Notes: generated by a model not told the origin, from the sequence alone. DNA of 64,000 nucleotides from a virus (IMGVR_UViG_2634166464_000002:1-64000), one strand, 5' to 3'; counted from the stretch's first letter, positions 6,939 through 37,300 are shown. A program made the numbers and translations.

Positions 6939-6949
6939 GCCCGTCTCGC

Positions 6950-7183: not shown

Positions 7184-7293
7184 CCGGAACGGATATCTAT
7201 CTGATGTTCCTCGGCCCAGTCCTCGGGTTGGTCGCCGGTCTGGTGATCTATGCCATTGCCCGCCGGCAGAGCCAGAAAACCCACACCCGATGA
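7180..7293 (+). CDS. Small single-TM peptide (37 aa)
   Basis: ATGA overlap; 'IYLMFLGPVLGLVAGLVIYAIA' then basic tail. Confidence 0.6.
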   Translation: MTGTDIYLMFLGPVLGLVAGLVIYAIARRQSQKTHTR

Positions 7294-7295
7294 GA

Positions 7296-10500: not shown

Positions 10501-11423
10501 TCGGCAGCCTCCTGAAGCAGCGGCAATGACATCTGCCAGTGGGTCTCGGTGAGATCAGCGACGGATTCGACCTCCTCGACGAAGGCCGCGGCCTCGCGCC
10601 AGTCGTTTGCTGAGCGAGGCTTGATGCCCCGGGACCGGAGGATCTCGCGCGCTTCCCGGGCCGTGAGCTTGCGCCCGAGTTCCTCCTCGAGCGCGACCCT
10701 CTCCTCGATCGCATGCTTGAACGCGTGCAGGCTCCACGCCATCGAGTCGGCCGAATAGAGCAGCGCCCGCACGCACGGGTCTTTCAAGGCCGTCTTCTTC
10801 AAGCCGAAGCCGTGCAATCGCAGATCGGGCCTAAACCCCTTGATGCCGGCGAGAATGTGGATGACGTCCGCTACAGAGCCATTGCGCTTGCAGACGCTTC
10901 CCACGCCCACCCACATGCTCGTTGTGAGGCGACACCCATACATCCGAATGTGACGCTGATAATCTTCCGGGTTGTATCCCTGCAGAACGGGGATCACCGC
11001 GAAAGGGATCCGCCCTTCGAACAGATCCTCGAGGGCGGCGAGCAATAGGTCATAGCGCTCGATCGTCAGTTGCTGGTGATGGCGCACCATCTCGGCGTGA
11101 CGCTTCGCCGTGAGATCCTTCTCGTCGACCTGCAAGAGCTTCGCGACGACGGAGCGCTCGCACATGTAGTCCTGGGCCGACGCCGCCACGATGCGGGCCG
11201 TCCCTTGCGTGTGCAGCTCCCACAGCCTGCGGGCATAAGCTTCGACCGGATGCGGGTATCCGCCGTGCTGGTCGAGCGTCGAGAACGCGCCCGAGTCGAT
11301 AAATACCTGGCGGGCGCCGAGCGGCTTGCGGCGCGTCATCAACCGGTGGATCGAGATGCACACGCGGTGGAACCGGTGCGCATCGCTCGGCTGATGGATC
11401 CCGACATAGAAGTCCACGCTCAT
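10497..11423 (-). CDS. DpdA-like (TGT-fold) DNA guanine transglycosylase for 7-deazaguanine insertion
   Basis: TGT-type motifs 'FIDSGAFS', 'QDYMCE', 'IPVLQG', 'VGVGSVCKR', 'LHGFGLK', 'SADSMAWS'. Confidence 0.8.
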   Translation of the reverse strand: MSVDFYVGIHQPSDAHRFHRVCISIHRLMTRRKPLGARQVFIDSGAFSTLDQHGGYPHPVEAYARRLWELHTQGTARIVAASAQDYMCERSVVAKLLQVDEKDLTAKRHAEMVRHHQQLTIERYDLLLAALEDLFEGRIPFAVIPVLQGYNPEDYQRHIRMYGCRLTTSMWVGVGSVCKRNGSVADVIHILAGIKGFRPDLRLHGFGLKKTALKDPCVRALLYSADSMAWSLHAFKHAIEERVALEEELGRKLTAREAREILRSRGIKPRSANDWREAAAFVEEVESVADLTETHWQMSLPLLQEAAE

Positions 11424-12010
11424 GCCGCGGCCTCGAACATGTCGAGCTCATCCCCGAAGGAATGCCAGCCGGGGCGCCTGGTGCGCGCAAAGACATCCGC
11501 GCGCCGCGTCAACTGCGTGCAGCGCTCGTCGACCATCTCGTAGAAGCTTTCAGGCTTCTGGGAGTGCTTCCGCCGGATGCCTTTGAACAGGCCCGGGAGC
11601 GCCGCATGCTTCGGCTCGCCGCGCGTGGCGACAATGACGGGCTCCGCCATAGACCGCACGCGGTAGCCCGTGCCGATCGCCGGCCTGCCCGACAGGAAGA
11701 TCTTCTCCCAGTAAAGCAGGGTCTTGTATTCGTAGCCCCAGGCTTTGACGCACTCGATCTGCTTGTCGAGGAGTGGCGCGGTCGCCCAACACAACAGCAG
11801 GCAGTCGGGATCGGCGAGATCTCCGATCGGAAAGCGCCAGAATATCTCTTCGACTGGGTAGCAGCGGTAGTGCTTCGATGCGCTTTTCTCGCCACCACGC
11901 TCGCTGCGGGTCCGAAAGCGCCAGGGCGGATCCGCGACCACAAGGGAGTAGTAGTGCGGGCGCAGATCCCCGAACTGCCATGCCTCGAGAGGCGCGAAGA
12001 GTCCCCTCAT
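11420..12010 (-). CDS. MT-A70 family N6-adenine methyltransferase
   Basis: 'VVADPPWRF', 'LLCWAT', 'WGYEYKT..YW.K', 'GTGYRVRS..E', 'HSQKPE', 'FART.RPGW..FG.E'. Confidence 0.9.
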   Translation of the reverse strand: MRGLFAPLEAWQFGDLRPHYYSLVVADPPWRFRTRSERGGEKSASKHYRCYPVEEIFWRFPIGDLADPDCLLLCWATAPLLDKQIECVKAWGYEYKTLLYWEKIFLSGRPAIGTGYRVRSMAEPVIVATRGEPKHAALPGLFKGIRRKHSQKPESFYEMVDERCTQLTRRADVFARTRRPGWHSFGDELDMFEAAA

Positions 12011-12951
12011 CCCCCGATGCCTCGGAGCCTGACGAGTTCCTTGTTGAGGAAGATCACGTCGATGCCGACGGATTGCAGGGTCGGCGTCGCCTCGATCAGC
12101 GCACGGTGAAACGCCGGGATGCTCGGCCAGCCGCCGTCGTCGGTGAGCGTGCGCAGCGAATAGGGATATCCGTCGTACGTGCGCTTCAGTGACCGCGCGA
12201 GTTGGCTCAGGATCTCGACCGCGCCCCGCGGGCCGTTGATCCGCACAGTCTCGGGACTGTCTGCAATCGGCTCAGGCGCAGGCTCTTCCGCGCGATCATT
12301 TTCGGCAGCTGTTTCGAGGGGGGCAGCCGGCGCCGGCTCGGGCTCCCCCGCGATCGATGCCAACCCCTCGCCCGTGTTGAACGCCGTGAAGCGCTGGCAC
12401 ACGATCTCCCGGATGGTGGCGGGAGTCTCGGGAGCCGCTGGCGGTTCGGGGTCAGGAGGAGTCCCCTCCCCGCCAGCGTCGCTCCCGGCCGACACGGCTT
12501 CAGTGGATTCGGGCTCATTCCCGACCTGCACCTGGCCAGTGCTTTCTTCCTCCGATTGCTGTTGGCTCGCCGACAAGCCTACCTCCACGCTCCGATCGGA
12601 GGCGTCTTTGCCCGGGGCGCGGCTCATCCGCCGGGAGGCGTGCGTGGAGGATCTGTCACGTTGGGAGATGGCGCGCGGATCGCCGGCCTCGCGGGCCTCA
12701 GCGATATGCGTGCGGACCCAACGATCACCGTGCCCGAAGCACTCTCCGATCTCCTCCTGGGAGAGATCGGTACGCGACCAGAGGACCAGTACCTCGTCGC
12801 GCAGGCTCAGCGTCGCCCGCGCAACATCGGGCTGCAGGTTGAGAAGCATTCCCATGCAGCCGGCGACACGGTTGTTGAGGTGCGCGAGCTCGCGCGAGAT
12901 GTCGACCAGTTCACCAATAACCTCGTCGCGTGCCGCGCGCTTACTCTTCAT
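12007..12951 (-). CDS. HTH-containing protein with disordered central linker
   Basis: 'LSQEEIGECFGHGDRWVRTHI' HTH, Pro/Glu/Ser-rich linker, possible C-terminal winged helix. Confidence 0.55.
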   Translation of the reverse strand: MKSKRAARDEVIGELVDISRELAHLNNRVAGCMGMLLNLQPDVARATLSLRDEVLVLWSRTDLSQEEIGECFGHGDRWVRTHIAEAREAGDPRAISQRDRSSTHASRRMSRAPGKDASDRSVEVGLSASQQQSEEESTGQVQVGNEPESTEAVSAGSDAGGEGTPPDPEPPAAPETPATIREIVCQRFTAFNTGEGLASIAGEPEPAPAAPLETAAENDRAEEPAPEPIADSPETVRINGPRGAVEILSQLARSLKRTYDGYPYSLRTLTDDGGWPSIPAFHRALIEATPTLQSVGIDVIFLNKELVRLRGIGG

Positions 12952-13168
12952 GATCGGACCCGTACCGTTTGGCGTAGGAGCGAGCCGCGAAGCGCAGTTC
13001 CGGAGACGCGCACATGCGGCAGTAGATCTTTCCGCGGTCACCCCACGACGGATTGGCGGGGTCACCGCAGTCGGAGCACAAAGGCTCCTGCGGAGGCGGA
13101 GGCGGCGGTTTCGCGGGCCGCGCTGCGGGCAGTGGCTCGAAGAAGTCCTTGCCCTTCAGCGCCATCAC
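12941..13168 (-). CDS. Small zinc-finger protein
   Basis: 'CSDCG...YCRMC' with poly-Pro. Confidence 0.55.
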   Translation of the reverse strand: MMALKGKDFFEPLPAARPAKPPPPPPQEPLCSDCGDPANPSWGDRGKIYCRMCASPELRFAARSYAKRYGSDHEE

Positions 13169-13773
13169 CCTGCCCCTGCGAGGCGAGCGACGCCGATCGG
13201 CACGCGCTGGCCGAACATGATCTCGTAGGGAGGCGTCCAGCGCCCGTGCGTGCGTTGCGCCCAGTGCCAGATCGCCACCGCATCAGCGCGGTTGTCGTCG
13301 GTGCAGTAGAACGGGAGGTAGCCCCATTCCTTGCAGCGGTTCAGGACAGCCTTCTTGGTGTCCCTGCGCTCGCCGGCATTCGCCTTGTCGATGAACTTCG
13401 CGCGGACGGTCGCGGGCCAGACCTTCTCGATCGGGATCCTTTCCTTCTGGGCCTTGAGGCGCAGCGTCGTGACGAGGGCGATCGGAAGCCATAGCTCCAG
13501 CGCCCCGCGGGGGCGCCCGTCCCGCGGCTTCGCGGTCGGGTTGAGCGGCGCCTCAAAGACGATCCTGTCGGGCCAATCCTCTTTCCACCCGAGACGATGG
13601 TCGAGGAACGTCTCGAGGTTCTCGCACATGTGCGCGATGTCCTCGTCGACATCCTCGTACTTGCGCTTGCGCAAGCTGACCGTCATCGAGTTCAGGCGCG
13701 ACAGGTCATCCTTGGGAGGACGACCCATCGCAACGCCTGTCTTGATCGAGAGATCAAACGCCCAGACGTTCAT
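13165..13773 (-). CDS. RuvC-like Holliday junction resolvase
   Basis: 'WAFDLSIKTGVA', 'IVFEAP', 'DDNRADAVAIW' acidic catalytic pattern. Confidence 0.8.
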   Translation of the reverse strand: MNVWAFDLSIKTGVAMGRPPKDDLSRLNSMTVSLRKRKYEDVDEDIAHMCENLETFLDHRLGWKEDWPDRIVFEAPLNPTAKPRDGRPRGALELWLPIALVTTLRLKAQKERIPIEKVWPATVRAKFIDKANAGERRDTKKAVLNRCKEWGYLPFYCTDDNRADAVAIWHWAQRTHGRWTPPYEIMFGQRVPIGVARLAGAG

Positions 13774-13782
13774 GGCGCGCGA

Positions 13783-14406
13783 TCAGTTCAGGATCGTGTA
13801 GCTGCCGTCTGCCTTCGCGGGCTTGCGCCGCTCGCGCCGCGGCGCAGCACTGTCGTCGTTCGACGCGAGCTGCGCGGAGACCTCGCGGATATGCGCGTCG
13901 CCTTTCGCGATCTCGGACCTCATGGACTCGCGAAACGACTCGACGCTGTCGGACGCCTCGGTCTTCTTGCGCCGGCCGCGGGCCCGCTTCTCAGCCTTGG
14001 CATCGACCTCCTCGGGAGCCGGCGCCAGGTGAGCATTGGCCTCGAATGCCTTCTCAGCCTCCTCGAGGGGCATGCCGCCGTTCGCGGGAGCGGGCTCGTC
14101 TTCCTCTTTCGCCTGCGCGGCCAGGTCACCGTAGTGGGAGTTCCGGCTCCACTTCTCGGCGCGCATGATGCCGACGTAAGCCTCGAGGTTGTCGAGGTAC
14201 TCTTCGCGTTTCAGTTCATCCATGCGGTCGAGCCGCTTGATGAGGTTGAAGACTCCGGTGTGGAGGTTGGAGTTTTCCTTGTGATGAAGGACGCGCTCGC
14301 CGTGCGCGCCCCTGATCTCCGCAATTTTGGAGACCACGTTGTTGCCTTCGTTGACCAGCGCGACGAGAACCTTGCTGGCAATCATCCTCTCTGACGTCTC
14401 ACCCAT
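13783..14406 (-). CDS. GapR (DUF2312)-like DNA-binding protein with acidic/basic tail
   Basis: 'HKENSNLHTGVFNLIKRLDRMDELKREEYLDNLEAYVGIM' parallels the GapR C-terminal helix pattern. Confidence 0.4.
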   Translation of the reverse strand: MGETSERMIASKVLVALVNEGNNVVSKIAEIRGAHGERVLHHKENSNLHTGVFNLIKRLDRMDELKREEYLDNLEAYVGIMRAEKWSRNSHYGDLAAQAKEEDEPAPANGGMPLEEAEKAFEANAHLAPAPEEVDAKAEKRARGRRKKTEASDSVESFRESMRSEIAKGDAHIREVSAQLASNDDSAAPRRERRKPAKADGSYTILN

Positions 14407-14494
14407 TACGCATTACTCCGGGGCGGTTAACGGTGCCGGTGCAGGCTCGACACCGGGGACTCTCCAGGCCTGCTCTGGAGTTTTCCGGGGACGC

Positions 14495-15067
14495 TTACGC
14501 CCTCGCGGCGCGCTTGGAGATCCAAGGCACCAGCGGTTCATTGTCGGGACACGACAGCGCGTCACCGCGCGCGAGCAGATCCTGGATGGCTTCGATCACG
14601 AGCCCGAGCCCTCTGTGCTGCTGAAGCAGGTACTCGAGATGCGCTCTCCACTCTGCGCGTGTGGCCTCCTGGGCCGGCACGAAGGAGATATCGCTGACGT
14701 TGCCATCGACCGGAACCGACAGGGCGGGCGGCAACCGTTCCGTCAGGTGCTTGCTCATTCCGGGGAGCACCAGCTGACGCTCCCCTTTATCCTTCACGGC
14801 TGCCCACGAGCTCGCGACCTTCGCGGCCATATCGTGCAGCGCGCGGGTGATCAGATCCTGCTCGAGCACCGCGACGAGGTCTGGATGCGCGTCGCTCACA
14901 AACGCGACGACGTCCGACACACGGGCGCGGCGTCCGTATTTGTAGAAGTTGCGATACTCGGTCTGCATCGCCTCGCGCAGCCTGGTGCGGGCCTCGCGCG
15001 GCGTGAGTTCGTCGTCGGTCTCGTTCTGAGACAGTGAGAGCGATGCGTTCTGCCGCTCAGGCTGCAT
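14495..15067 (-). CDS. Hypothetical protein
   Basis: GGAGG RBS, overlaps upstream gene. Confidence 0.65.
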   Translation of the reverse strand: MQPERQNASLSLSQNETDDELTPREARTRLREAMQTEYRNFYKYGRRARVSDVVAFVSDAHPDLVAVLEQDLITRALHDMAAKVASSWAAVKDKGERQLVLPGMSKHLTERLPPALSVPVDGNVSDISFVPAQEATRAEWRAHLEYLLQQHRGLGLVIEAIQDLLARGDALSCPDNEPLVPWISKRAARA

Positions 15068-15974
15068 TGCGACGCCTCCAGGCTTGCTCGAGATCGCGGA
15101 TGAAGGGTGCAAGACGGTCGATGAGCGGGCCGAAGACGATGTCGGAGTCAGGCGTCACGCAGTCGAGCGCTTCCTCGGGCGTCAGCCCAAGCCCCAGGAT
15201 GGCACGCATGCCGCCGCAGAGTTGCAGGTACAGATCGCCCTGGCGGCGCTCCTCGTCGGTTGCATCCGTGTGAAACTTGCCGTCCCGGCCGAGCGTCGGG
15301 TTGCCTGTCTCGGCAGCGATCTTCCGAGCATCCTGTTTGGTCGGGAGGCTCTTGCGGAACTCCACCACAGCGGCCTTGGCATCGCCGGCCTGCTTGATCA
15401 GCTCCGCCTGCTTCTCGGGCGCCTGCTTGGCGAATTCTGCGGCCGGCTTGATCGCGACCTTGCCCTCGTCGACAGCCGCCACGAGCTCCGGAGCGCCCTT
15501 GGCGACAACGGTCTTCGCGTTCTCGTAAGTCTTGCCGCTTCCGAGGCCGACCCGCTCGGCAACCAGGTCACGGGTATGCCCTTTCACAAACCCCGGAACC
15601 GGTTCCACGGTTTTCGTCGTCGGACGTCCCTGCCGTCCCTCGAGCTCTTTCTCGATCGCGCGAGCAAGCGCGACACGCTCGGAGACCGTGAACTCCTTGC
15701 GGGTTTCGTTCTCGTCGAACTCACCCTCGAGGATCGACTCGATGTCGAGCACCCGGGCAGGAATCGTCTCGCGCCCGAGATGCTTGAAGGCTTCGATGCG
15801 CCGCTCGCCGAAGATGAGCCTACGGTCCTGTGTGACACCAATCGGCTGCAGAAGCCCGAGACGCTCGATGCTCTCAGCGAGCAGCACGATGTCGCCGAGA
15901 TCTTTGCGAAAGCGCTCGCCGACCACGATGTCGGCGATCGGGAGTTCCTGGACGGGAGCCGATTGCGTAGCCAT
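15057..15974 (-). CDS. ParB/Srx N-terminal domain protein with HTH
   Basis: 'IVVGERFRKDLGDI..LAESIERLGLLQPIGV...LIFGERRIEA', 'ENETRKEFT', HTH 'TRDLVAERVGLGSGKTYE'. Confidence 0.85.
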   Translation of the reverse strand: MATQSAPVQELPIADIVVGERFRKDLGDIVLLAESIERLGLLQPIGVTQDRRLIFGERRIEAFKHLGRETIPARVLDIESILEGEFDENETRKEFTVSERVALARAIEKELEGRQGRPTTKTVEPVPGFVKGHTRDLVAERVGLGSGKTYENAKTVVAKGAPELVAAVDEGKVAIKPAAEFAKQAPEKQAELIKQAGDAKAAVVEFRKSLPTKQDARKIAAETGNPTLGRDGKFHTDATDEERRQGDLYLQLCGGMRAILGLGLTPEEALDCVTPDSDIVFGPLIDRLAPFIRDLEQAWRRRNAA

Positions 15975-19557: not shown

Positions 19558-20916
19558 ATGAACGCACCGATGGTCGTCGAGCCTGCGCACCCGAACGTCG
19601 CAACCCTCACCGCATCAAGCACCGTGCATGCGATCGTGCCGCAGACGTTTGATGACGTCTGGCGCATGGCGCAGCTCCTCGCCAAGAGCGGGCTCGTGCC
19701 GTACGGGATGAACACTCCGGAGAAGCTCGCCGTCGCGATCATGCACGGGCTCGAGCTCGGCGTGAAACCGCTCCAGGCGATTCAAGGCATTGCGGTCATC
19801 AATGGCATGCCTCGGATATGGGGCGACCTGGCGCTCGCCGTCGTACGCTCGTCGCGTGAGCTCGAGCGGTTCAAGGAATGGCATGAGGGGCCTGAGCCAC
19901 AGGATTGGGAGCGCCCGCAAGGCGACGAGCTCAACTACAAAGCCCTGTGCCTGGTGAAGCGCAAAGGCGAGGAAGAGATCGTCGCCGAGTTCTCGATCCG
20001 GGACGCGCAGATTGCAAAACTGTGGATGAAGCGCGGAGGCCAGGCCGGCGACAAAGATACGCCTTGGGTGACAAACCCCAAGCGGATGCTCAAGATGAGA
20101 GCGCGAGGCTTCGCGCTGCGCGACACCTTCGCGGACGTGCTCAAGGGCATGTTGATCGCGGAGGAACTGATTGGCTCGGAAGAAGAGGTGGACTATACGC
20201 CCGTCAACACCGAGCCTCCGCGCCCGCCGCGGATCGCACTCGCGGAAACGCAAACCGAGATCGCTGCAACAACTGCCCCTGTTGCAGCGGTGGACGACGC
20301 CGGGGTCGGTTCACCAGCCCCCCAGCCAATGAAGGCCCCGGCGTCGGCCCCTTCTCCCGAGCCCGAGGATGAGTTCGATCCCGAGGCTGCCCTGACGGAG
20401 ATCGAGGAGCACTGCGCCGCAGCGCAAACCGCGAAGGACGTCGAAGAGATCCGCGACTTGTTCTCGGACGACTGGGAGCGCTTCACCCGCACGCAGCAGG
20501 AGAAGGCCGATTACCTCCTCGAAGAGGCGCTGAAGCGCATCACCAAGCCGAAGCGCGAGTCCCGCAGGAAGACCGCGGCCGAGCGCGAGGAGGGCCGCAA
20601 GCGTGTCGAGTCTGCCGGCGGGAAAGGCGCCCGCGAATATCTCGATGACGATCGCGCCGACGACGACCTGGCCCAGAGCGTCGAGCAGGATCCGTTCGCG
20701 ATCGTCGAGACCTTCGATAACGAGGAGGCCTGGGCCGCGCATATCCGCCGTGCCATCGCTGCCGCCTCGAGCGTGGAGCACATCGAGAAGCTGAAAGCCG
20801 TCTGGAACGCTACGAAGGCCTTCCGGCAGGCTGCGGTCTCCCCTCCCCTGCGCACGGAGGTGCAGAAGGAGGCGGTCGCGAAGATGGACGAGATCGCGCA
20901 AGCCGCGGATGGCTAG
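19558..20916 (+). CDS. recT: RecT/Red-beta family ssDNA annealing protein
   Basis: 'LAKSGLVP', 'AIMHGLELGVKPLQAIQGIAVING.P.IWGD', 'PWVTNPKRMLKMRARGFALRDTFADVLKG'. Confidence 0.85.
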   Translation: MNAPMVVEPAHPNVATLTASSTVHAIVPQTFDDVWRMAQLLAKSGLVPYGMNTPEKLAVAIMHGLELGVKPLQAIQGIAVINGMPRIWGDLALAVVRSSRELERFKEWHEGPEPQDWERPQGDELNYKALCLVKRKGEEEIVAEFSIRDAQIAKLWMKRGGQAGDKDTPWVTNPKRMLKMRARGFALRDTFADVLKGMLIAEELIGSEEEVDYTPVNTEPPRPPRIALAETQTEIAATTAPVAAVDDAGVGSPAPQPMKAPASAPSPEPEDEFDPEAALTEIEEHCAAAQTAKDVEEIRDLFSDDWERFTRTQQEKADYLLEEALKRITKPKRESRRKTAAEREEGRKRVESAGGKGAREYLDDDRADDDLAQSVEQDPFAIVETFDNEEAWAAHIRRAIAAASSVEHIEKLKAVWNATKAFRQAAVSPPLRTEVQKEAVAKMDEIAQAADG

Positions 20917-22066: not shown

Positions 22067-22139
22067 GAGCCCCTTTTAGCACGGCAGAACCGACGAAAGG
22101 AAACCGGCCGCGCGACTAGCTCGCCCCCTCCCCTTCCCC

Positions 22140-22919
22140 TCATGGTCGCCGAACTGGCGTGTAGAAGCGGGCGAACCGCCCTGCCCGCAAGGCCTCGGCC
22201 GACAAAGGTTTGACAGGCGCGACCGCGATCACCGGCATCGGAGGATCGGCCGCGGGCTTCGGCTCAAATCGCCCATAAGCAACCAAGGGTTTTCTTGTGG
22301 GTTTTTCCATTGACGGGAGTGTAACCACAATCGTCTCAGGAACAGTCTCCAATAACCCCTTCGAAGAAAACCCCCGGTTGCTTATGGGTGATTTGCGAAC
22401 CGCCGAATCGCGGCGCTTGCAGGGCCGGGTATTGGCTGCCGAGAAGATTGCCTCCAGCTCAGGCGCAAAGCGATACCAAGCCACCCGGCGCCGGATGCCA
22501 TCCTCGCCTCGGACATGCCCGCTGTCGGGGTTCAGGCGAACGATGATGCCAGCTTCCACCAGCGTCTTGATGGCTCCGCGGATCTGGGCCTCGGTCTGGC
22601 CGAGCTCGGCGCAGTCCTTCAAGCCCCCGAGACTCCCGAGCCCCTTGCGATCCTGTGTGCGGCGCACGATCGGGAACGGCTCTCCGAGCTTCTTCGGACT
22701 CGACCAGTAGCGCGCCAGGAATCGCAGGAGCGCGGCAGCCTCGGCGCGGTTGCCCCTTTTCTCCAGGAGCGGTGCGATGAACTCGATCGCCTCGTGCGGG
22801 ATCCGATAGGGACCACACGTGCGGCTGACGTGGAAGGCTCGCCCAAGCGGGCGCCGCCCGCGGCGCACCGGCAGCGGGCTGACGGCTGCGGATGCAGCCT
22901 TGGCATAGTTGATGGGCAT
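22140..22919 (-). CDS. Putative plasmid replication initiator (winged HTH)
   Basis: 'ELGQTEAQIRGAIKTLVEAGIIVR...WYRF' wHTH; A/T-tract-rich internal stretch about 22270-22400; ctRNA-like element upstream; par module nearby. Confidence 0.55.
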   Translation of the reverse strand: MPINYAKAASAAVSPLPVRRGRRPLGRAFHVSRTCGPYRIPHEAIEFIAPLLEKRGNRAEAAALLRFLARYWSSPKKLGEPFPIVRRTQDRKGLGSLGGLKDCAELGQTEAQIRGAIKTLVEAGIIVRLNPDSGHVRGEDGIRRRVAWYRFAPELEAIFSAANTRPCKRRDSAVRKSPISNRGFSSKGLLETVPETIVVTLPSMEKPTRKPLVAYGRFEPKPAADPPMPVIAVAPVKPLSAEALRAGRFARFYTPVRRP

Positions 22920-22978
22920 CGGTCCTTCAGGACCGCTTCACGCAGGCAATGGGGAACCGTTCGGAGAGAAGATCTCCG

Positions 22979-23083
22979 TTGACTCGACCAGCGATGTCAG
23001 GGATGATCGCCATTGCAGCGGGGCGACCAACCCTACGGAATTCGGGCCTTCGAAGTTACCAGCTTCGGAGGCCTTTCCATTTT
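22979..23083 (+). ncRNA. Countertranscribed antisense RNA (repC-type ctRNA-like) with promoter and terminator
   Basis: TTGACT(22979)-17bp-GATGAT; 11-bp stem GGCCTTCGAAG/CTTCGGAGGCC (23045-23073) followed by TTTCCATTTT; antisense to rep leader. Confidence 0.6.
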
Positions 23084-23228
23084 CAGCGTCTCGCGGCTAT
23101 CCCGCCTCCTCTGAAAGTTTCGAATCGTCCTGCGCGGATTCGCGCAGGCGTCGCCCATGAGGGCTCACGTTGGGGAAACGGTCAAGCCCATTGTCCCCAG
23201 CAATTTGAGATGATCACGCGCGGAGTCG

Positions 23229-23244
23229 TTAAGAAACCCGTAAC
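23229..23244. promoter_or_regulatory. CtrA-like binding site upstream of rep
   Basis: TTAA-N7-GTAAC, one mismatch to TTAA-N7-TTAAC; adjacent GANTC at 23223. Confidence 0.4.
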
Positions 23245-23251
23245 GATCGGG

Positions 23252-23503
23252 TCAGCAGGCCTCGTAACCGCGCTTGATTTTGCGACGGGCGAGCAGCTCC
23301 AGCGCTTCGGTCGCAGCCTCTTCGGTCGGGTGCTCGTCGATCTTGCGCTGCCCCTCCCCTCCCCTGCCCAGTCGCCCCCAGCGCCGCTCGACCAAGTGGT
23401 AGCCGAACAAATCGAGATGCACCGAGATCTCGTAGAACCGGTTCATGTTCCGCTCGGGATCGATGCGGCGGAGGTAGACGGAGTGGCGGGGCTCTTCTGA
23501 CAT
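23252..23503 (-). CDS. WGR domain protein
   Basis: 'LRRIDPERNMNRFY....DLFG...RRWGRLGR.G...K.KRGY'. Confidence 0.9.
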   Translation of the reverse strand: MSEEPRHSVYLRRIDPERNMNRFYEISVHLDLFGYHLVERRWGRLGRGGEGQRKIDEHPTEEAATEALELLARRKIKRGYEAC

Positions 23504-23586
23504 GGCGCCAGAAGACTCCCGGCTGGATTCGGCGTCAAGAACCGGCCTGGGCCCCGGCTACGACGTCTGTGAATGACCGTAATCCC

Positions 23587-23986
23587 TGCAATCAGATCAC
23601 TGCACCCATTGAGATCACTGCGGTGATCTCGGTGACTGCCTTGACCGACAAGGCCTTAGTCACCGCAGCCAATCAGATCACTGCAGTGAAGTCGTGCTGT
23701 GATCTCGGTAACTGAGGTCAGGTAAGGGACTGCAGTCACCGACATGATGGCAGTGTCAGCTGTGACCTGAGCCAAGGCAGCCAAGGCAGCCAAGGCAGCC
23801 AAGTCAGTGGCCGCAGCCAATGGCGTGACTGCATTCAATGACGTCAATGAATTCATTGGCTTCAATCCGGTCATGCCAGCCACTGCGGTCACGGCAGTGA
23901 TGCCTTTACCTGATGTTAAGAACCTCATGGCATTGGTCGACCTCACCGCAGTAACGGCAAGGAGGTCGTTCATGGCAGTAATTCCG
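23587..23986. repeat. Degenerate 9-bp-period array (about 44 units), candidate centromere and par operator
   Basis: 32 units in one phase (23699-23986) and 12 in a phase shifted by 4 bp (23587-23694); best cores TGCATTCA-a-TGACGTCA-a-TGAATTCA-t-TGGCTTCA; includes (GCCAAGGCA)x3. Confidence 0.8.
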
Positions 23987-24661
23987 TTTGTTTCCAGCAA
24001 GGGCGGGGCCGGCAAATCGACCTCTGCCCTGATCCTCGCCACCCAGCTAGCCGCCCGTGGCAGCAAGGTGACGGTCCTCGACTGCGATCAGAACCAGCAC
24101 TGCGCTGAGTGGTACGCCGAGGCCAAGAACAAGAGCGTCGCAGTCGTGGGGGACATCACCTACAAGACCGTGGTCGAGGAGATCGAAAAGGCCCATCAGG
24201 TGTCCGACGTCGTGATCGTCGATCTGCAGGGTAGCCAGAACATGACCGCGTCCCGCGCGATCTCCCGCGCCACGATGGTATTGATTCCGCTCGGGGCTAC
24301 CCACCTGGACGCGAAGGAAGCCACGAAATCGGTCGGCCTCGTGCAGGACGAGGAGGTCGTGCTGCGGCGGGCCGTTCCCTACCGTGCTTTCTTCACAAAG
24401 TGCCGCCCGAAGCCCACGATCGAGGAACGGAAGATCAAGGACAACCTGTTGGGCCTCGGCGTTCCGATGCTCCAGACCCGTCTTCTGAGCCGCGTGGCTT
24501 ACGAGAACCTGTTCAGTTACGCAGTCTCGCTGTCGGACTATGCCGACCAAGGCGTCGGGGTCAGCGGCGTTGAGGAGGCGATCAGGAACGCGGACGAATT
24601 CGTGGACGACGTCGTGGCGGCGCTGAACGACCTCGACGGAGACGCGAGGGCCGCAGCATGA
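23972..24661 (+). CDS. parA: ParA Walker-type partition ATPase (type Ib, no N-terminal HTH)
   Basis: 'SSKGGAGKST', 'VLDCDQNQ', 'VIVDLQG'; AAGGAGG RBS before ATG 23972. Confidence 0.92.
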   Translation: MAVIPFVSSKGGAGKSTSALILATQLAARGSKVTVLDCDQNQHCAEWYAEAKNKSVAVVGDITYKTVVEEIEKAHQVSDVVIVDLQGSQNMTASRAISRATMVLIPLGATHLDAKEATKSVGLVQDEEVVLRRAVPYRAFFTKCRPKPTIEERKIKDNLLGLGVPMLQTRLLSRVAYENLFSYAVSLSDYADQGVGVSGVEEAIRNADEFVDDVVAALNDLDGDARAAA

Positions 24662-25083
24662 GCGAGAATGCGGAGAGGAAGGTTCTGGCCATTCCGAGGA
24701 AGCGAGAACTCCCGCCACCCGCCCAGTTGGAGGTCGTCGACCAGGTCGCAATCGAGAGCGGCTGGGGGCAGGGCGCAATGGGGGAGGGGGAGCCCCCTCC
24801 CGCTTCCCGGCCAGAGCCGCCCGTGGCGCCGACAGCGGCCCCGAAGAAGCCGAGAGCCCAGAGACCTGCCCAAGAGCAGCCTGCGGCCCCGGTAGCGCCT
24901 CTCGTCGCCATGCCAATGCGGCGCCGGAAGCAGGTCGATGAACCGACGATGAGCTTCACGGCCCGCGTTTCGATCCGCTCCGGTAACGCCTTCATCGAGT
25001 GGTGCCACGAGGAGAGGATCTCCTACCGCGAGGGGTTCGATTACCTGATGGATCTGCTCGCGAAGGAGCGGGCAGGGCAGTGA
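24658..25083 (+). CDS. RHH centromere-binding protein (ParG-like)
   Basis: Disordered Pro-rich N-terminus with basic patch; C-terminal 'PTMSFTARVS...FIEWCHEERISYREGFDYLMD'; coupled to parA. Confidence 0.7.
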   Translation: MSENAERKVLAIPRKRELPPPAQLEVVDQVAIESGWGQGAMGEGEPPPASRPEPPVAPTAAPKKPRAQRPAQEQPAAPVAPLVAMPMRRRKQVDEPTMSFTARVSIRSGNAFIEWCHEERISYREGFDYLMDLLAKERAGQ

Positions 25084-25142
25084 CATCAGCCAATGAAGTC
25101 AATGCATTCAATGACGCCAATGAAGTCGTGGAATTCAGGGCA
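25080..25142. repeat. Second short 9-bp-period array
   Basis: TGAAGTCA-a-TGCATTCA-a-TGACGCCA-a-TGAAGTCG-t-GGAATTCA; 21 of 22 bp identical to 23830-23851. Confidence 0.8.
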
Positions 25143-25514
25143 ATGGCAGATCAACAGTCTCAGGGGGTAGAGCCCAAGGCCGTGCCAAGGCGCAATCGCG
25201 GGACGCCTGAGCAGGTCCACAACTTCACGATGCGCCTGCATCGGGATGATGTGGAGAAGTTCATTCGCTTCTGCGAGCACAAGCGTCTTAGCTACAGGGA
25301 GGGGTTCGCGCTCCTCCTTGAGCGGATGCGCGAGGCGCACAGCCGCGACGCGCAGGAGCGCATCTACAAGAATGACCTGTCGGAGGAGCCGACCGTTCCG
25401 CTCTCGATCCGACCGCCGCTGAGTGTCGCGAACCGCTTCGTAGCGTACTGCAAGGCGAACCGGCTCGCATACTGGGAAGGGCTCTCAGAGCTCATGGACA
25501 AGGCTAAGGTATAA
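25143..25514 (+). CDS. Tandem RHH protein paralogous to the centromere-binding protein
   Basis: Two copies of the motif: 'FIRFCEHKRLSYREGF' and 'FVAYCKANRLAYWEGL'; alternative GTG start at 25080. Confidence 0.7.
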   Translation: MADQQSQGVEPKAVPRRNRGTPEQVHNFTMRLHRDDVEKFIRFCEHKRLSYREGFALLLERMREAHSRDAQERIYKNDLSEEPTVPLSIRPPLSVANRFVAYCKANRLAYWEGLSELMDKAKV

Positions 25515-25527
25515 GGGAGGAGCCTCA

Positions 25528-25746
25528 ATGATGGTGCCGCAAAGGACAATCACGGACATCGATCTGCTGTTCGACGTCCCGATGTATGATGCCCTTAAGC
25601 TACTGGCGAAGGATGCCACGGATCCGGAGGTCAAGGCCGCCGCGAAGCTGCTCCGCGCGAAGCTCGTGCCGAATGACTCCAGCGCCTCCAGCGTTCTCGC
25701 CGCGATAAGGCCGAGGGTCCACTTCAGCACGCAGATCTCATACTGA
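25528..25746 (+). CDS. Hypothetical protein
   Basis: GGAGGAG RBS. Confidence 0.55.
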   Translation: MMVPQRTITDIDLLFDVPMYDALKLLAKDATDPEVKAAAKLLRAKLVPNDSSASSVLAAIRPRVHFSTQISY

Positions 25747-25750
25747 GGGG

Positions 25751-25777
25751 AGGGGGCTTCGGGCCCCCTTTTCCTTT
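25751..25777 (+). terminator. Intrinsic terminator of par operon
   Basis: AGGGGGC-TTCGG-GCCCCCT hairpin then TTTT. Confidence 0.65.
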
Positions 25778-26774: not shown

Positions 26775-28007
26775 GTGGGAAGATTTGCACGTCCTTTTGA
26801 GATCGAAGTCACCCGTCAGGGTAATATAGCCTGCCAGTACAGGGTTAAACTACAGTGTTGTAGGTGCCCAAGGCACGAGACTTTCCGGTCGCGGAACCAT
26901 CCTGCTGATGACTGGGTGCTCAAGAGGTTCAAAGAGTGGGGATGGGTGGTCGCCAAATCCCCACGGGATCACATCTGCCCCACCTGCGCGGGTACCGACC
27001 AGACCGAGAACCGCCTGGCCGACCACTTCAAAGTCGTGACAGGGGAGGGGAGGGTGCCCTCGCGCGGCGAGCTCGCCGACCAGGTCGCCAAAGAGCGCCG
27101 CATCCTGGATGAACAGACCGCTATTCTCCTCGAGCGCCACAACCTTGGGACATCCCAGACAGTGAAGAAGTCCAAGATCCCTGACGGCCCGATCCTCGTG
27201 AATGGCTCCGTCGAGGTAAAACATCCCGCCCACATCCACGAGGCGCTATCGACCATAGCTTCCGAGACGGCAAACAACCGAGCCGCAGTGGAACTGATGA
27301 TCGACCAATTCACGAAGTGCCAACAGCTTCTGAATCAGCAAATCACCGCGCTTGGGAATATGACTGCGATGCTGGCGCGCGTCGGTGATGGGATCCACAA
27401 CGGATTGCGCGAACTAAGCCAGAACCTCAATGAGAACACGAGGCAGGTCGAGGCAACGAACCAGCACCTGCTCGAGAACACCGAAGTCATCCGCCAGGTT
27501 CACGCGAAGCTTTCTATCCGGGACGGCTCCGTCCCCGCGACTGTCGAGCCGGTGTCAGAGCCGATCGTCGCTGAGCCGGTCTCCAGCGAGACTGCCCCTG
27601 AGAGCACCCTGCCCGCTGACCTGCTCTCGATGCTCATGCCGGAACAGGCGCAACAGCCCGAGCCCGAACCTGAGCCCGTCGCGACTATTCCCGCCGACCT
27701 GCCGGCCGAGCCGCCCTCCTCCTTGCCAATACCTCTGTCGGCCCAGATCCGTGCTGCCCGCCAGGCGAAGCGGATGACGCAGCAGCAGATCGCTGACAAA
27801 CTCGGTGTCTCAGGCTCTGCCGTCACCCAGTGGGAGAGTGGCACGCATGCCCCGAGGGCCGAGACGCTGCCGGCCCTCTGCAAGCTGTTGGGGATCAAGC
27901 TGTCGGCTGCACCCCGCCCGTCTACAGCTCAGAAGAAGAGCGTCGTTGAGCTCAAGAAGCGCGCAGCTCCGGCGAGCAGGTCTCGGGCGAAGAAGCTCGC
28001 GGCCTGA
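26775..28007 (+). CDS. Multidomain regulator: N-terminal Zn finger, coiled coil, C-terminal XRE HTH
   Basis: 'CCRC...HICPTC'; 'IRAARQAKRMTQQQIADKLGVSGSAVTQWESG..P'. Confidence 0.75.
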   Translation: MGRFARPFEIEVTRQGNIACQYRVKLQCCRCPRHETFRSRNHPADDWVLKRFKEWGWVVAKSPRDHICPTCAGTDQTENRLADHFKVVTGEGRVPSRGELADQVAKERRILDEQTAILLERHNLGTSQTVKKSKIPDGPILVNGSVEVKHPAHIHEALSTIASETANNRAAVELMIDQFTKCQQLLNQQITALGNMTAMLARVGDGIHNGLRELSQNLNENTRQVEATNQHLLENTEVIRQVHAKLSIRDGSVPATVEPVSEPIVAEPVSSETAPESTLPADLLSMLMPEQAQQPEPEPEPVATIPADLPAEPPSSLPIPLSAQIRAARQAKRMTQQQIADKLGVSGSAVTQWESGTHAPRAETLPALCKLLGIKLSAAPRPSTAQKKSVVELKKRAAPASRSRAKKLAA

Positions 28008-30964: not shown

Positions 30965-31666
30965 TCAGGAGGAGGGGGTGGATCCGCCGGGGATGAGCGC
31001 GCGGAGATCCTCGGGCTTGGCACCGAGGGCGAGGGCGAGGGCGACGACTGACGAGACGGCGTCGGTCGCGAGCGCAGTGATCGTGGTGTCGGACTCGACC
31101 ACGGGCGCGGGTACGGGCAGGCCGAGGCAGGCGCGTAGGTCGCTCCCGATGTCGAGCCGCTTCGCGCTTCCCCAATCGATGGCGCCGGTCGACTTGACCT
31201 TCGTGTATTCGAGGATAGTGCCGTCGTGGCTCCACAGGCCGTCGAAGAACAGGCGGCATTCCTTCTCGCGGCGCTCGACGATGGACGCAGGCTTGTTCCA
31301 TGTCAGGAAGGATTTGCGCGCAGCCTCATGGTCGCCGGCCCTCACTTGCTTGACCCACGTCGCCCTTTTGATCCCGCCCGTGTTGAAGTGAAATGAAACC
31401 GCCGCAGCGAACTGGGCTTGGGTGAGGGTGTGCCCCTCGAATGCCTGTCGCACGTCCTCTGCGTAACGCTCCAGCGCCCAGACGTAGATCCGCAGGCAAT
31501 GGTCGAGCGGCTGTGGGCTGTTGATGTATCGCTCGACGCGGTGACCGCTCGCAGAGGTGATCCCGATTGACCAGGTCCAGACATCGCCGGGATTCTTGTA
31601 GGCTTGGCGACACAGAGCTTCGTGCGAGGCGAGTTCCATCGCCACGTCGTAATCGACCTGATTCAT
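30965..31666 (-). CDS. Endolysin, T4/GH24-type lysozyme
   Basis: 'HEALCRQAYKNPGDVWTWSIGIT', 'QAQFAAAVSFHFNTG', 'RREKECRLF'. Confidence 0.85.
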   Translation of the reverse strand: MNQVDYDVAMELASHEALCRQAYKNPGDVWTWSIGITSASGHRVERYINSPQPLDHCLRIYVWALERYAEDVRQAFEGHTLTQAQFAAAVSFHFNTGGIKRATWVKQVRAGDHEAARKSFLTWNKPASIVERREKECRLFFDGLWSHDGTILEYTKVKSTGAIDWGSAKRLDIGSDLRACLGLPVPAPVVESDTTITALATDAVSSVVALALALGAKPEDLRALIPGGSTPSS

Positions 31667-33587: not shown

Positions 33588-34325
33588 TCAGACTCCCCAC
33601 TCGATCAGGACGCGCCCATTCGCGCCGTTGCCCCCTGCGGAGCCGTTGTAGTAAGCGCCCGCGCCGCCGCCCCCGATGGTGATGCCAATTGTGCGGCCGT
33701 ATCCCGGCCCGAAATAGGAGTGCCCGAAACCGCCGCCGCCGCCGCCATTTCCAGAGCCCATGCCCGCGCCGCCGCCACCCGGCCAGCCACCCCCATGCCC
33801 CTGTCCGACACCGCCGCCGCCGCCATAAGGGGAGCCGCCGCCGCCGTATGCCTGACCATTCCAGTTGCCGCCGTAGCCGCCACTGAGATTTTCGGTGTTG
33901 CCGGAATAGCCGTAGCCGCCATGACCACCATTGACCCCCGCGCCGCCAACGCCGCCGGTTGCTCCGACATAGCCATGAATGACGGACCCGCCGCCATCAC
34001 CGCCGCCAAAGCCACCCCAACCGCCGCCGCCGCCCCCGCCCCAGACGCGCAATCTCAACCATGCGTGGCTCGGCACCCAGATTTCATAATAGCCGGGTCC
34101 GCCGTGATCCCATGCGCCGCCATAGGAACGGTAGGCCCCATAGAACCCGCTCATCCAGATCGGCCCGTGGTTTGGATCGATCTGGATGTTGTTGTTCTCG
34201 GGGTTGTTGCCGATGATCCCGTGGCCCTTGTAGTAGCTGTAGAGATCGTAGACGGCCTGACCGGGACGGAACTCGTCTCGGATCTCTGTGATCCAGAGTG
34301 TCGAACCCCAGCCTTTAATCGGCAT
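33588..34325 (-). CDS. Glycine-rich tail fibre tip protein
   Basis: 'VWGGGGGGG...GGGGGF...ITIGGGG...GGNGANGRVLIEW' glycine-rich domain. Confidence 0.75.
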   Translation of the reverse strand: MPIKGWGSTLWITEIRDEFRPGQAVYDLYSYYKGHGIIGNNPENNNIQIDPNHGPIWMSGFYGAYRSYGGAWDHGGPGYYEIWVPSHAWLRLRVWGGGGGGGWGGFGGGDGGGSVIHGYVGATGGVGGAGVNGGHGGYGYSGNTENLSGGYGGNWNGQAYGGGGSPYGGGGGVGQGHGGGWPGGGGAGMGSGNGGGGGGFGHSYFGPGYGRTIGITIGGGGAGAYYNGSAGGNGANGRVLIEWGV

Positions 34326-37300
34326 CAGCGCGCCTCCAGTTTCGCGGCGAGCTCCTTGATGGCCTCGATGAAGTAGCCGGCCAGGTTCCCGTAATCGACC
34401 GACAGCATCCCGTCCCTGTCCTCCCGCACGAGTTCCGGCGCGATCGGCCGCAACTGCTGCGCGATCACGCCCGCGCTGGTCTCGCCGCTCTCGATGCGGT
34501 CGAACCACACGCCCTGCATGGCGAGCACCTTGGCGAGGGCGTCGGTGATCGGCCGCACATTCTTTTTCATGCGGAGGTCGGAATAGGCCCCGACGTTGCC
34601 CGAGAAGGTCACGGTGCCGTCAGTCAGCGAGAGCTGCATCGGGTGGCGGCCATTCGGCCCGCTGTCCCATGTGTTCGCGTCGGTGCCGCCACGCAGGACG
34701 TAGAAGTAGTTGGAGTTGTTGTGGATGAACGAAGACCACTGGCCGCCCGTGATGTCGCGGAGCTTGATGGTTGGATCCTCGCCGCGGACCTCCAGCATCG
34801 GAACGCGCACTGGGGCGACGTTGAACCCGTAAACCGTGCCGTCGTAGTGGATCCAGCGGGCATCGCTGGCGGCACCGAAGAAGATCGCACCCGTGCCATT
34901 GCCGCGGCTGGCGATCAGATCCCGCGCGGTGAAGGTGCCATCGGGGTCGATCTTGACCGTGGTCTTGTAGACACCGGCCTCGCGGTTGTTGAAGGTGAGG
35001 CTCTTGGTGTCGGGATGGCGCTGGATATACCAACAGTTGTCCCAGTTGGTGCCGACTGCGACGACGCCCCAACCGTCCGTCCGGTAAGACGAAATCGCAG
35101 GCGCGATCACCTCGCTCGTGAACGTGTTGCTGCCCGACAGGCTCGCGAGTTGGTAGGTCGTGCCGTTGACGCGCGCGAAGATTCCGCCGGTCGTCGTCCA
35201 GACATCGCCGTTCGCAGGCGACGTCGGAGCCGTGCCGTGCGGCAAGTTGATCGAGGCGGTTGAGGTCGACGGCGTCGCGAAGGTTTGCCTCGCCGTCCAT
35301 GTTTGCGCCCGCTCAACAGTCGCAACCTGGCGCGTGGTCGAGCCCATCCGAAAAAAGAGTGCGTTGGATGCAAACCAAAAGTCGCCGCTGACCGGAGACG
35401 TCGGCGCTGTGCCGCTCGGGAGATTGAACCCTGCACCCTCGGCGGTCGGGGCGACCGTGGTGAGCTTGCCCTCCATCGTGTCGCCGGCCTTGTCGACCTT
35501 GGTGGTGATCGCGTCCTCAAGGCCGTCGATCTCGCTCGCCGGGTGGCGGTGCGGGGCAGGCGGAAAGGTTTCGGGCTTCTCGGCGATATCCGGCCACGCG
35601 GTCGAGATCGCGCCGATCGCGGCCTCAACATCGGTGACATTCGCCTTGGTGGCCACCTCCGCATCGAGTTCCTCGAGCGCCGCTTGGACGTTCACCGACT
35701 GCAGGTTGCCGGTCGGCGTGACCACGATGTTGGTGGCGTCGCCGGTCGAGAAATCCCTCGCCTTCTCGGCCCAGTGCCGAGCCGAATACCCGTTGGGCGC
35801 AACCGCGACATCCTCGGGCGCATTGGCCCAATCCTGCGCCAGGTTGCGCGCCGTTTCGGACGCGGCCTGCGCGGCCTCCGCATTCGCCTCCGCCGTCTCG
35901 GCTGCTTCGCGAGCGGCTTCAGCCCCGCTACGGGCCGTCTCGGCGCCCGTGCGGGCCGTTTCCGACGCCGTGCGGTCTGCGGCAACCGCGACCCGGTCAG
36001 CCTCGACCTCGTCACGCAGTCCCGTAACCGTCGCGAGATCCGTGGCGACCGCAGCACGATCGGTCGCCGTCTCATCGCGCAGGCCCTGAACCGTAGCGAG
36101 GTTCGTCGCCACCTCCGCGCGATCGGCCTCGACCCCGGCAGCCGTCGTATTGACCGTGAGCCGGTAGGCCTCCGCTTCGTCGCGTGCAAGGAACGTGGCG
36201 TCACGGGCCGCAACCGTTTCGTCCCGCGCTGCCGTGGTGACATCTCGTGCAGCCTCGGTGCCTGTAAGAGCGGCCTCGACGGCGGCGCGATCATCGGCAA
36301 CTGCGAGCCGATCGGCTTCGACCTCACCACGCAGAGTCGTGACGGTGACCAGATCGGCCCCGACTGCGGCGCGGTCTGTGCCCGTAGCGTCGCGGAGTTC
36401 CTGCACGGTCGCAAGATCCGCCGCGACCGTCGCCCGGTTCGCCTCGACCGCTGCCGCCGCCGTTGCGACCTCGGCCCGATCAGCCTCCGCCTCGTCACGC
36501 GCCGCGAACGTGGCATCGCGCGCCTCGAGCGTCACATCGCGCGCTGCGGTCGTGACATCGCGCGCCTCGATGCCGGTGTCGCGTGCGGCCTCCGACGCCG
36601 CCTGTGCAGCCTCTGCGCCAGACCTCGCGGTCTCCGCCCCCGTGCGTGCGAACTCAGCCGCGCCGGCCGAGGCTGCAGCTTCTCCAGCCCGCGTGGTTGA
36701 GATCCCGGCCTGCGCGGTGCTGGTCGCAGCGCTCGCCGCCGCATTCGACTCGCTCGTTGCCGCAGCCTGTTCCGATGCCAGACTCGCCGCAGCGCTGTTC
36801 GCACTGGCCTCGGCTGATGACGCGCTCTGCGATGCGCTCGTGGCGCTGTTGGTTTCCGAGGTCTGGCTCGCCGTCTCCGAGGCTTTCGCCGCGTTCTGGC
36901 TCGCCAGAGAGGCAGCAGCGCTGTTCGCGCTCGCGCCTGCGGAAGTGGCGCTGTTCGTCTCGCTCGTCCTTGCGGCTGCTTCGGACGCAGCCGCTGCCAG
37001 CGCCGAGGCTAACGCGTCGCTGCGATACGGCCCCAGGATGTTGTCGAGGTCGCCCTCGACCACTGCGGTCCAGATCGTCTCGCCGACCTCCCTGTATTGG
37101 ATCGAGTAGGTCTCGGGGTCGACCCGAAACTCGACCGGCGCTGCGCTCTCGCCTTTCAGGCTCTGCCCTGCCGACCAGTGACCGGTTGCATCGGAGAGCT
37201 TCGCAGAGATCAGGAAGGGATTCGTGTCGATCTGCAGGAAGGTGAAACCGCGCTTCTGGTTGTCGAAGGCTGCGCGGTCAGCCAAGGAGCCGAACGCATC

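Follow-up and report, generated by a model that had tools for sequence, protein, structure and literature searches.

The DNA analysed here (the window, 64,000 nucleotides (nt) long) covers positions 1-64000 of one 73,638-bp virus record, IMGVR_UViG_2634166464_000002, and this report concerns a putative replication cassette and an adjoining partition cassette located at 22.1-25.8 kb. The first of these contains a gene encoding a 259-amino acid (aa) winged-helix protein, a candidate replication initiator. A short countertranscript RNA (ctRNA) is predicted on the opposite strand, antisense to the leader of this gene, and an inverted repeat lies within the coding sequence itself. Upstream of the winged-helix gene, and in the same direction, is a gene for a WGR-domain protein. 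An array of 9-bp-period repeats separates the latter from parA, which is followed by genes for two likely ribbon-helix-helix (RHH) proteins, with a second array between them, and by the last gene of the partition operon. The positions of these features and of the phage genes are listed in Table 1.

Table 1. Positions of the main features of the window, counted from its first nucleotide.
Feature	Position	Strand	Basis or remark
DnaB helicase	8168-10714	-	Early gene, 848 aa
RecT	19558-20916		Early gene
Winged-helix protein, 259 aa, candidate replication initiator	22140-22919	-	Family alignment, structure model, profile comparison
Inverted repeat within the winged-helix gene, candidate origin or initiator site	22265-22395		Arms 22265-22296 and 22364-22395
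Small hairpin GGTCC-TGAA-GGACC	22921-22934	-	Adjoins the start codon and overlaps the likely ribosome-binding site; read directly from the sequence
ctRNA promoter, TTGACT-17 nt-GATGAT	22979-23007	+	Promoter scan; -35 box kept in 15 of 15 aligned loci
Predicted ctRNA, ~70 nt, antisense to the winged-helix gene leader	23012-23084	+	Promoter and terminator
TTGACC box	23181-23186		Read from the sequence by eye
WGR-domain protein, 83 aa	23252-23503	-	Pfam WGR, E 2.5e-18
Array of 9-bp period, ~46 units, candidate centromere/operator	~23570-23985		Between the WGR gene and parA, reaching the parA start codon
ParA, small Walker-type partition ATPase, 229 aa	23972-24661	+	NCBIfam, PHROG
141-aa protein, candidate ParG-like centromere-binding protein	24658-25083	+	Proline-rich tail, C-terminal RHH-like motif
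Second array of 9-bp period, 7-8 units nnnYCAATG	25077-25145		Lag-9 autocorrelation 0.56
123-aa protein, two RHH-like repeats in one chain	25143-25514	+	Start alternatively at 25080, compare a 144-aa database record
72-aa protein	25528-25746	+	Last gene of the partition operon
G+C-rich hairpin and T run after the 72-aa gene	~25750-25777		Read from the sequence; unflagged by the terminator scan
Endolysin	30965-31666		Family match
Tail fibre	34325-37600		Family match
J-like tail protein	37981-41919		Family match
Tape measure, putative	43421-49255		1944-aa open reading frame; assigned from size and position alone
Protease/capsid genes	54735-57246		Family match
Portal	57831-59231		Family match
Large terminase	59228-61081		Family match

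Protein family searches identified a full set of virion and lysis genes, which characterizes the element as a tailed phage; its early genes, besides those for DnaB and RecT, encode a ParB-like nuclease, a methyltransferase, RuvC and NinB. Searches of 50,697 phage and 72,556 plasmid records brought up no close relative, the large terminase being at most ~32% identical to any entry. The last open reading frame (ORF) of the record was open at the 3′ end, and it continued in frame through the first bases of the record to a stop codon at nt 184, just before the next gene. A database protein, P0151 (179 aa, encoded on a 73,638-bp contig), was 100% identical to the record-end piece over 81% of the query, and its residues 119-179 were identical to the translation of nt 2-184 at 61 of 61 positions. 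The two ends of the record therefore join inside one intact 179-aa gene and are neighbours in the real molecule, which is a closed circle without host DNA. An integrated prophage with its integrase outside the window was ruled out on the same ground, as the record closes on itself. When the whole record was searched in six frames with models of tyrosine recombinases (Phage_integrase), serine recombinases (Resolvase), protelomerases (ResT/TelK) and rve transposases, no match was obtained at E ≤ 1; each of the four models gave matches in 3 to 14 of 14 control genomes. In the window, no tRNA gene was found.

These results agree with a first-pass annotation of the same DNA, which had seen no recombinase or protelomerase in the window, had advised a check of circularity and host flanks, and had interpreted the element as a phage-plasmid carrying a replicon and partition module in place of an integrase. 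The winged helix-turn-helix (HTH) gene, ctRNA-like element, WGR gene, repeat array, parA and RHH genes on which it had relied are all present where it had placed them, the RHH assignment being likely and not proven. Phages with cos ends or permuted genomes likewise assemble as circles, and for this reason circular assembly alone is no proof of plasmid life. Taken together, the tailed-phage genes, the absence of an integration enzyme, the closed circle and the partition operon support the phage-plasmid reading. We consider it probable that this is a temperate tailed phage kept as a circular low-copy plasmid through the replication and partition cassettes at 22.1-25.8 kb. The phage would be extrachromosomal in its host, which probably belongs to the Methylobacteriaceae.

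The 259-aa winged-helix protein belonged to no Pfam, NCBIfam or PHROG family; a word-based protein search retrieved the query alone, and a sequence search of solved structures retrieved nothing. An exhaustive homologue search yielded 161 cluster representatives at E ≤ 0.001, including 51 at ≤ 1e-10. The homologues were mostly 190-260 aa in length, and the match spanned residues ~15-180. An alignment of 70 of the 150 homologues listed (the 80 omitted included short or partial sequences and the weakest matches) showed the conserved core GPYRLP .. RNR .. ALA.FLARFWS.P.RL .. FPIDRRAL .. LGLTEARVRGAI.TLE.VGFL.R .. G..RKPI.F.FG. A structure predicted by AlphaFold2 from this alignment contained a single winged helix at residues ~40-175, a disordered tail and one short C-terminal helix, with a mean predicted local distance difference test (pLDDT) score of 73.6 and values of >90 in the core. 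The model thus shows one winged helix, as against two in iteron-type initiators (Rep_3, RepA, pi and RepE), and on informal inspection for a rolling-circle Rep no HUH-type motif was noticed among the conserved columns listed. The nearest Atlas clusters according to language-model features were HTH_36, P1 RepL, RepA_N and DnaD_N, which we regard as a lead only.

The kinship detected at the sequence level was with RepC. Three of the 70 family members matched the Pfam RP-C model weakly (best E 4.5e-5). The same model scored 16.5-21.7 bits over model positions 77-140 with the homologues on four of five complete plasmids, the cut-off being 24.4, and in four of the five the winged-helix gene was the only RP-C signal. 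For a profile comparison, eight RepC proteins of 386-429 aa were taken from genomes that hold relatives of the 259-aa protein. The family profile aligned with them in hhalign with a probability of 87% (E 3.9e-6, score 49.7) over 90 columns spanning the winged helix, compared with a score of 21.9 for the reversed RepC alignment and of at most 24.1 for 20 column-shuffled versions.

The ctRNA was predicted from a promoter-like site followed 37 nt later by a terminator, which consists of a 14-pair hairpin (23044-23074) and a T-rich tail extending to 23084. The 73-nt RNA folded at -30.9 kcal/mol (z -4.0), and none of 200 shuffled sequences was as stable. Promoter and terminator counts within a 5-kb stretch were at chance level (1 vs 0.7 and 3 vs 3.4, respectively), so that the support for the ctRNA comes from its conservation in relatives. 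An antisense terminator with a stem of at least 10 pairs was present 60-230 nt upstream of the start codon in 17 of 27 related copies, many of them close kin, where 0.54 was expected from the 79 such sites per 667,160 strand-bases in the same loci; the other 10 copies failed the terminator criteria. The window and 14 of the 17 copies were aligned (L013, L024 and L025, whose hairpin was the same as that of L009 or L018, were omitted). In all 15 loci a -35 box, TTG(A/C)(C/G)N, was separated by 16-18 nt from a -10-like hexamer, and the predicted RNA measured 73-83 nt. Most copies folded into a small 5′ hairpin, and all 15 into a long terminator hairpin of varying sequence and preserved structure.

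The inverted repeat inside the winged-helix gene has two 32-nt arms that are 91% complementary and separated by a 67-nt spacer. It is located in the 3′ third of the gene, and no part of the gene or of the adjoining intergenic DNA was richer in A+T than the stretch 22261-22400. Perfect copies of its 13-nt core occurred in the window at the two arms only, and a 151-nt stretch had a predicted DNA folding energy of -41.1 kcal/mol (z -8.7). In 25 of 28 genes, among which close kin are again numerous, the corresponding position held the core pair TCGCCCA(A/T)AAGCA and, after ~20 nt, TGATTATGGGYGA. Codon usage within this element departed from that of the rest of the gene: glutamine was encoded by CAA 52 times and by CAG once within the element, vs 32 and 107 times, respectively, elsewhere in the same 24 genes. 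The codon preceding ATG-GG was ATT in 18 and CTT in 5 cases (all 23 counted), and elsewhere ATT accounted for 9 of 125 isoleucine codons. In the window the motif is read in another frame, giving AYG vs I/L-M-G in the relatives. Furthermore, the short spacers of the element form mini-hairpins with compensatory changes. The internal element is kept by selection on its nucleic-acid sequence, an exceptionally clear example of a cis-acting signal in the nucleic acid that overrides codon choice inside a gene, and it may act at the RNA level. The lytic initiator RepL of phage P1 has its origin, oriL, inside its own gene. By analogy with oriL and with the origin described within repC (PMC3155836), the inverted repeat would be the likeliest origin or initiator site. 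The element makes the idea of an origin inside an initiator gene directly testable beyond RepC and RepL.

We examined where the winged-helix gene occurs. By tblastn, nine plasmid records matched (eight from Methylobacterium and one from Microvirga; 9.8-66 kb), all of which are non-mobilizable and have no replicon type assigned in PLSDB; there was no match among phage records. Family patterns were built from a 16-sequence alignment, the 70-sequence alignment being too diverse for this use. Scanning one genome per species with these patterns identified 22 loci (18 in Methylobacterium, two in Microvirga, one in Enterovirga and one in a metagenome-assembled genome), mostly on contigs of 5.7-46 kb, and some genomes contained several, one of them three. 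Pattern scans of viral contigs with the single protein found no relative. The 16-sequence patterns, used instead, detected the gene on two other viral contigs (L006 and L007, from IMG/VR), a few kb from the tape-measure gene and, in L006, directly after parA, which suggests that both are further phage-plasmids with the same cassette. The winged-helix family, which has no name, is found almost exclusively on small plasmids of Methylobacterium, Microvirga and Enterovirga and on these two other phage contigs.

Two of the family contigs had terminal overlaps of 99 and 95 nt and are circles of ~5.6 and ~8.1 kb. Six ORFs were scanned on the 5.6-kb circle, and the sole Pfam matches were to a resolvase and its HTH region, four of the six ORFs, the family member among them, giving none. 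On the 8.1-kb circle, from Enterovirga, a ParA gene is divergent from the winged-helix gene; this circle (L026) also encodes, at 6740-7618 (-), a protein that contains the Macro domain of Thoeris ThsA (E 5.5e-49). A ParA gene was at most four genes away in 11 of the 27 related copies, and WGR genes were also found near the family member on Microvirga plasmid pR24_3. The five complete plasmids that carry the gene contained no Rep_3 (Rep3_N), RPA or full RepC.

In the partition cassette, ParA matched the NCBIfam model ParA_partition at E 1.5e-31, below the model cut-off (109.6 vs 180 bits), and a PHROG ParA-like family at E 5.6e-26. Its likely start is the ATG at 23972 (MAVIPFVSSKGGAGKST), and a longer ORF from 23807 represents read-through of the array. 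The periodicity of the large array was evident from autocorrelation values of 0.45, 0.49 and 0.45 at lags 9, 18 and 27, respectively, compared with 0.14-0.25 at those other printed lags which are not multiples of 9. The start codon of the 141-aa gene overlaps the parA stop codon. In the 141- and 123-aa proteins together, a common motif (strand, helix, R(I/L)SYREGF, helix; BLASTP E 2e-9 and 3e-7) occurs three times. Their RHH signal was weak (Pfam RHH_10, E 0.052; nearest Atlas clusters ParG/RHH at 0.91-0.92), neither passed a curated family threshold, and the AlphaFold2 model of the 123-aa protein (predicted template modelling score 0.31) showed a helix-pair pattern in which the beta ribbon was not formed. 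Given the weak RHH_10 match and the poor model, it is likely, and not proven, that both are RHH proteins. Of the features that mark type Ib (small-ParA/RHH) partition systems, a small ParA and repeat arrays are clear, and the RHH fold is weakly supported. To judge from its two repeats, the 123-aa protein could form a single-chain pseudo-dimer; among its database relatives, one has two repeats and four, of 87-94 aa, have a single repeat. Homologues of the RHH genes were found in none of the related winged-helix loci. A short distance past the partition operon, after two small ORFs, is the gene for a 410-aa protein (26775-28007, +) in which an HTH of the Cro/C1 type (residues 325-376, E 3.6e-14) is confined to the C-terminal end; this protein is a candidate prophage repressor of unusual length. 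A further 9-nt periodicity (lag-9 identity ~0.5) was noted at 33861-34060, near small ORFs of the tail region, and is probably a coding repeat.

We propose the following mechanism for the plasmid mode. Transcription of the winged-helix gene would originate upstream of the ctRNA terminator, where a TTGACC box was read at 23181-23186, and the ctRNA, transcribed from its own promoter, would pair with the mRNA leader, limit synthesis of the initiator and thereby set copy number and incompatibility. The 259-aa protein would serve as the plasmid-mode initiator and, probably as a dimer, would bind the inverted repeat in its own gene; the A+T-rich centre of the repeat would open, and a helicase, either that of the host or the phage DnaB, would then be loaded. 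ParA and the ParG-like 141-aa protein would segregate the copies via the two flanking 9-bp arrays, the upstream one of which extends over the parA promoter and is a probable operator through which the operon could be autoregulated. A further-reaching idea, which we put forward tentatively and judge to be somewhat short of probable, is that the gene, the ctRNA and the internal hairpin constitute a self-contained ~1.2-kb replicon, in which a RepC descendant with one domain initiates replication at a cruciform in its own coding sequence, and that this cassette, by moving among the small plasmids and the tailed phages of the Methylobacteriaceae, converts the phages into plasmids. If true, this would define the replicon of a whole set of plasmids from Methylobacterium, Microvirga and Enterovirga to which present typing assigns no replication gene, would provide a compact vector backbone for plant-associated methylotrophs, and would show a tailed phage becoming a plasmid through a small portable cassette.

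Several observations count against the phage-plasmid reading and the mechanism proposed for it. IMG/VR classes the record as linear, and CheckV estimates its completeness at 86%. The 259-aa protein did not match RP-C (PF03428) at E ≤ 1 and so falls outside that Pfam family; it also lacks the C-terminal domain of RepC, being disordered beyond residue ~175 in the model, apart from one short helix, and without a Pfam match. A Foldseek search gave no match at E ≤ 0.001 (best VIA Z 6.6) and generic winged-helix matches only. In the fold ranking, TFE, MarR and Fur stood alongside ORC/Cdc6, DnaD, the staphylococcal plasmid initiator 4pta (Z 5.8) and pi 2nra (Z 5.3); as transcription factors rank level with replication proteins, the fold cannot separate an initiator from a regulator. 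No notable family of direct repeats (iterons) was found within 22080-23260, and DnaA boxes were not enriched and did not occur inside the replication cassette. The long-armed form of the inverted repeat (arms of at least 14 nt) was present in the window and in L008 only. For the ctRNA, a search of Rfam at E ≤ 5 returned chance-level rows only, with no match to a known ctRNA family, and consensus folding (RNAalifold on a MAFFT alignment) gave only 3 pairs because the hairpins differ in length, and per-sequence folds were taken instead. The gene is present in every related locus by construction, because the loci were fetched through the gene itself, and the counts of 17/27 and 25/28 overstate the number of independent cases because many copies are close kin. 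On the 5.6-kb circle four ORFs (218, 241, 137 and 193 aa) had no assignment, and any of them could be the Rep. Finally, four of the five complete plasmids also encode a primase-helicase, a prim-pol or a toprim and RepA-helicase pair, and such genes could be the actual replication proteins of the plasmids that carry the winged-helix gene.

The RepC results qualify one claim of the first-pass annotation, which had found the Rep impossible to place in the RepA, RepB or RepC families and had suggested a profile search of the 259-aa protein. Its view holds for the protein itself, which matches neither RP-C nor any other curated family; it does not hold for the family profile, which aligns with the N-terminal domain of RepC. 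As this profile match comes without a score above the RP-C threshold and without the C-terminal domain, the sequence comparisons place the protein outside RepC membership, and we describe it as a distant relative, shortened in length, of the DNA-binding domain at the N terminus of RepC. It is a candidate initiator.

The element might also be a phage-plasmid in which the winged-helix protein does no more than regulate copy number, partition or immunity, and both replication modes depend on the DnaB module with an unrecognised initiator. This alternative, which we regard as unlikely, would be in keeping with the generic winged helix, common to MarR, ArsR and TFE regulators, with the 848-aa DnaB, whose 266-aa N-terminal part is unexplained, and its several unassigned neighbours, and with the primase or helicase genes on many of the plasmids concerned. 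It fits less well with the 5.6-kb circular plasmid, in which the six scanned ORFs include neither a primase nor a helicase, and with the five complete plasmids, where none of the three known initiator families tested for was otherwise present. In addition, antisense-RNA control combined with a strongly constrained cis element inside the gene is typical of rep genes, and the sole sequence-level kinship found was with RepC.

The position of the large array between the replication and partition genes, together with the lack of classical iterons beside the winged-helix gene, could mean that the 9-bp arrays are not centromeres and are origin iterons bound by the winged-helix protein, the inverted repeat within the gene then being an RNA or regulatory structure, a role which the mini-hairpins in its spacers, with their compensatory changes, would also suit. 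We find this improbable, as the arrays flank parA and the 141-aa gene, the first running into the parA start codon and the second following the 141-aa gene. Such arrays are the usual layout of small-ParA/RHH partition systems (TP228 parFGH and pSM19035 delta-omega). Relatives, moreover, keep the ctRNA and the internal element and have different par cassettes or none. It is highly improbable that the phage has no plasmid maintenance, being virulent or integrating by an unrecognised enzyme, and that its cassette displaces resident plasmids of the same family through ctRNA/initiator incompatibility or supports a transient carrier state: a cos or permuted phage would equally assemble as a circle, the hosts often contain several plasmids of the winged-helix family, and in repABC systems the parental plasmid is lost when a ctRNA is expressed in trans (PMC10194956), yet the full partition operon with two arrays, the nearby CI-like HTH protein and the closed circle without a recombinase best fit a stable plasmid prophage.

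With the winged-helix protein taken as the initiator of such a plasmid prophage, the replication cassette resembles repC and repABC replicons (p42d, pRmeGR4a and pTi) in several respects. These replicons also have an alphaproteobacterial host range, and it is the N-terminal domain of their initiator with which the winged helix aligns. RepC is reported to suffice for replication, with the origin inside repC and repC itself under ctRNA control (PMC3155836); in repC-family replicons this ctRNA is encoded upstream of repC (PMC10194956). The cassette of the window likewise has a short countertranscript with its own promoter and terminator on the opposite strand upstream of the gene (compare PMC10194956), an A+T-rich candidate origin inside the gene and, as in p42d repC, neither iterons nor DnaA boxes (compare PMC3155836). 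It differs from them in that the protein has 259 aa, vs 386-429 aa for RepC, lacks the C-terminal domain and scores below the Pfam RP-C cut-off. Moreover, the RNA of this family is ~70-83 nt long, vs 55-59 nt for the known ctRNAs, and belongs to no Rfam ctRNA family, and the element within the gene is a conserved, hairpin-forming inverted repeat, undescribed for repC. The partition genes also differ from those of repABC, encoding small ParA and RHH proteins and not RepA and RepB. No description of the short single-domain family, its ctRNA or its internal element was found in the literature searched, with subscription journals and supplements lying outside it. As a whole, this information indicates that the replicon is most likely of the repC-plus-antisense-RNA kind and of a type not yet studied.

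Among phage-plasmids, the Sinorhizobium element pLM21S1 has been reported to have a RepC-like system (PMC5537653), and Roseobacter elements to carry ParABS or RepABC (PMC10090143). Like pLM21S1, the Tritonibacter/Roseobacter phage-plasmids and P1, the element described here is a tailed phage without an integrase and with plasmid partition and replication genes; in contrast to them, its replicon is of the short RepC-like family and not a full RepC. A likeness to P1 is also seen in the RepL clusters among the nearest Atlas neighbours of the winged-helix protein. Like TP228 ParF-ParG and pSM19035 delta-omega, the partition cassette has a small Walker ParA that lacks an N-terminal DNA-binding domain, a small downstream protein in which a flexible tail is combined with an RHH-like motif at the C terminus, and arrays of short repeats at the promoter. 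It is distinguished from these systems by the 9-bp repeat period, the presence of two arrays, and the extra protein with two RHH-like repeats.

Elsewhere in the early region, the genes for the ParB-like nuclease, the RuvC-like resolvase and the DNA methyltransferase form a cluster at 11420-15974 (-), upstream of DnaB, and the ParB_N protein of this cluster is distinct from the partition operon. The N-terminal ~266 residues of DnaB matched no Pfam family and could constitute a loader or an initiator-contact domain. In the part of the record beyond the window, ORFs with normal codon-position G+C were scarce at 67.8-71.1 kb, and a radical-SAM protein is encoded at 66774-67841 (-) (PHROG 9298, E 3e-50).

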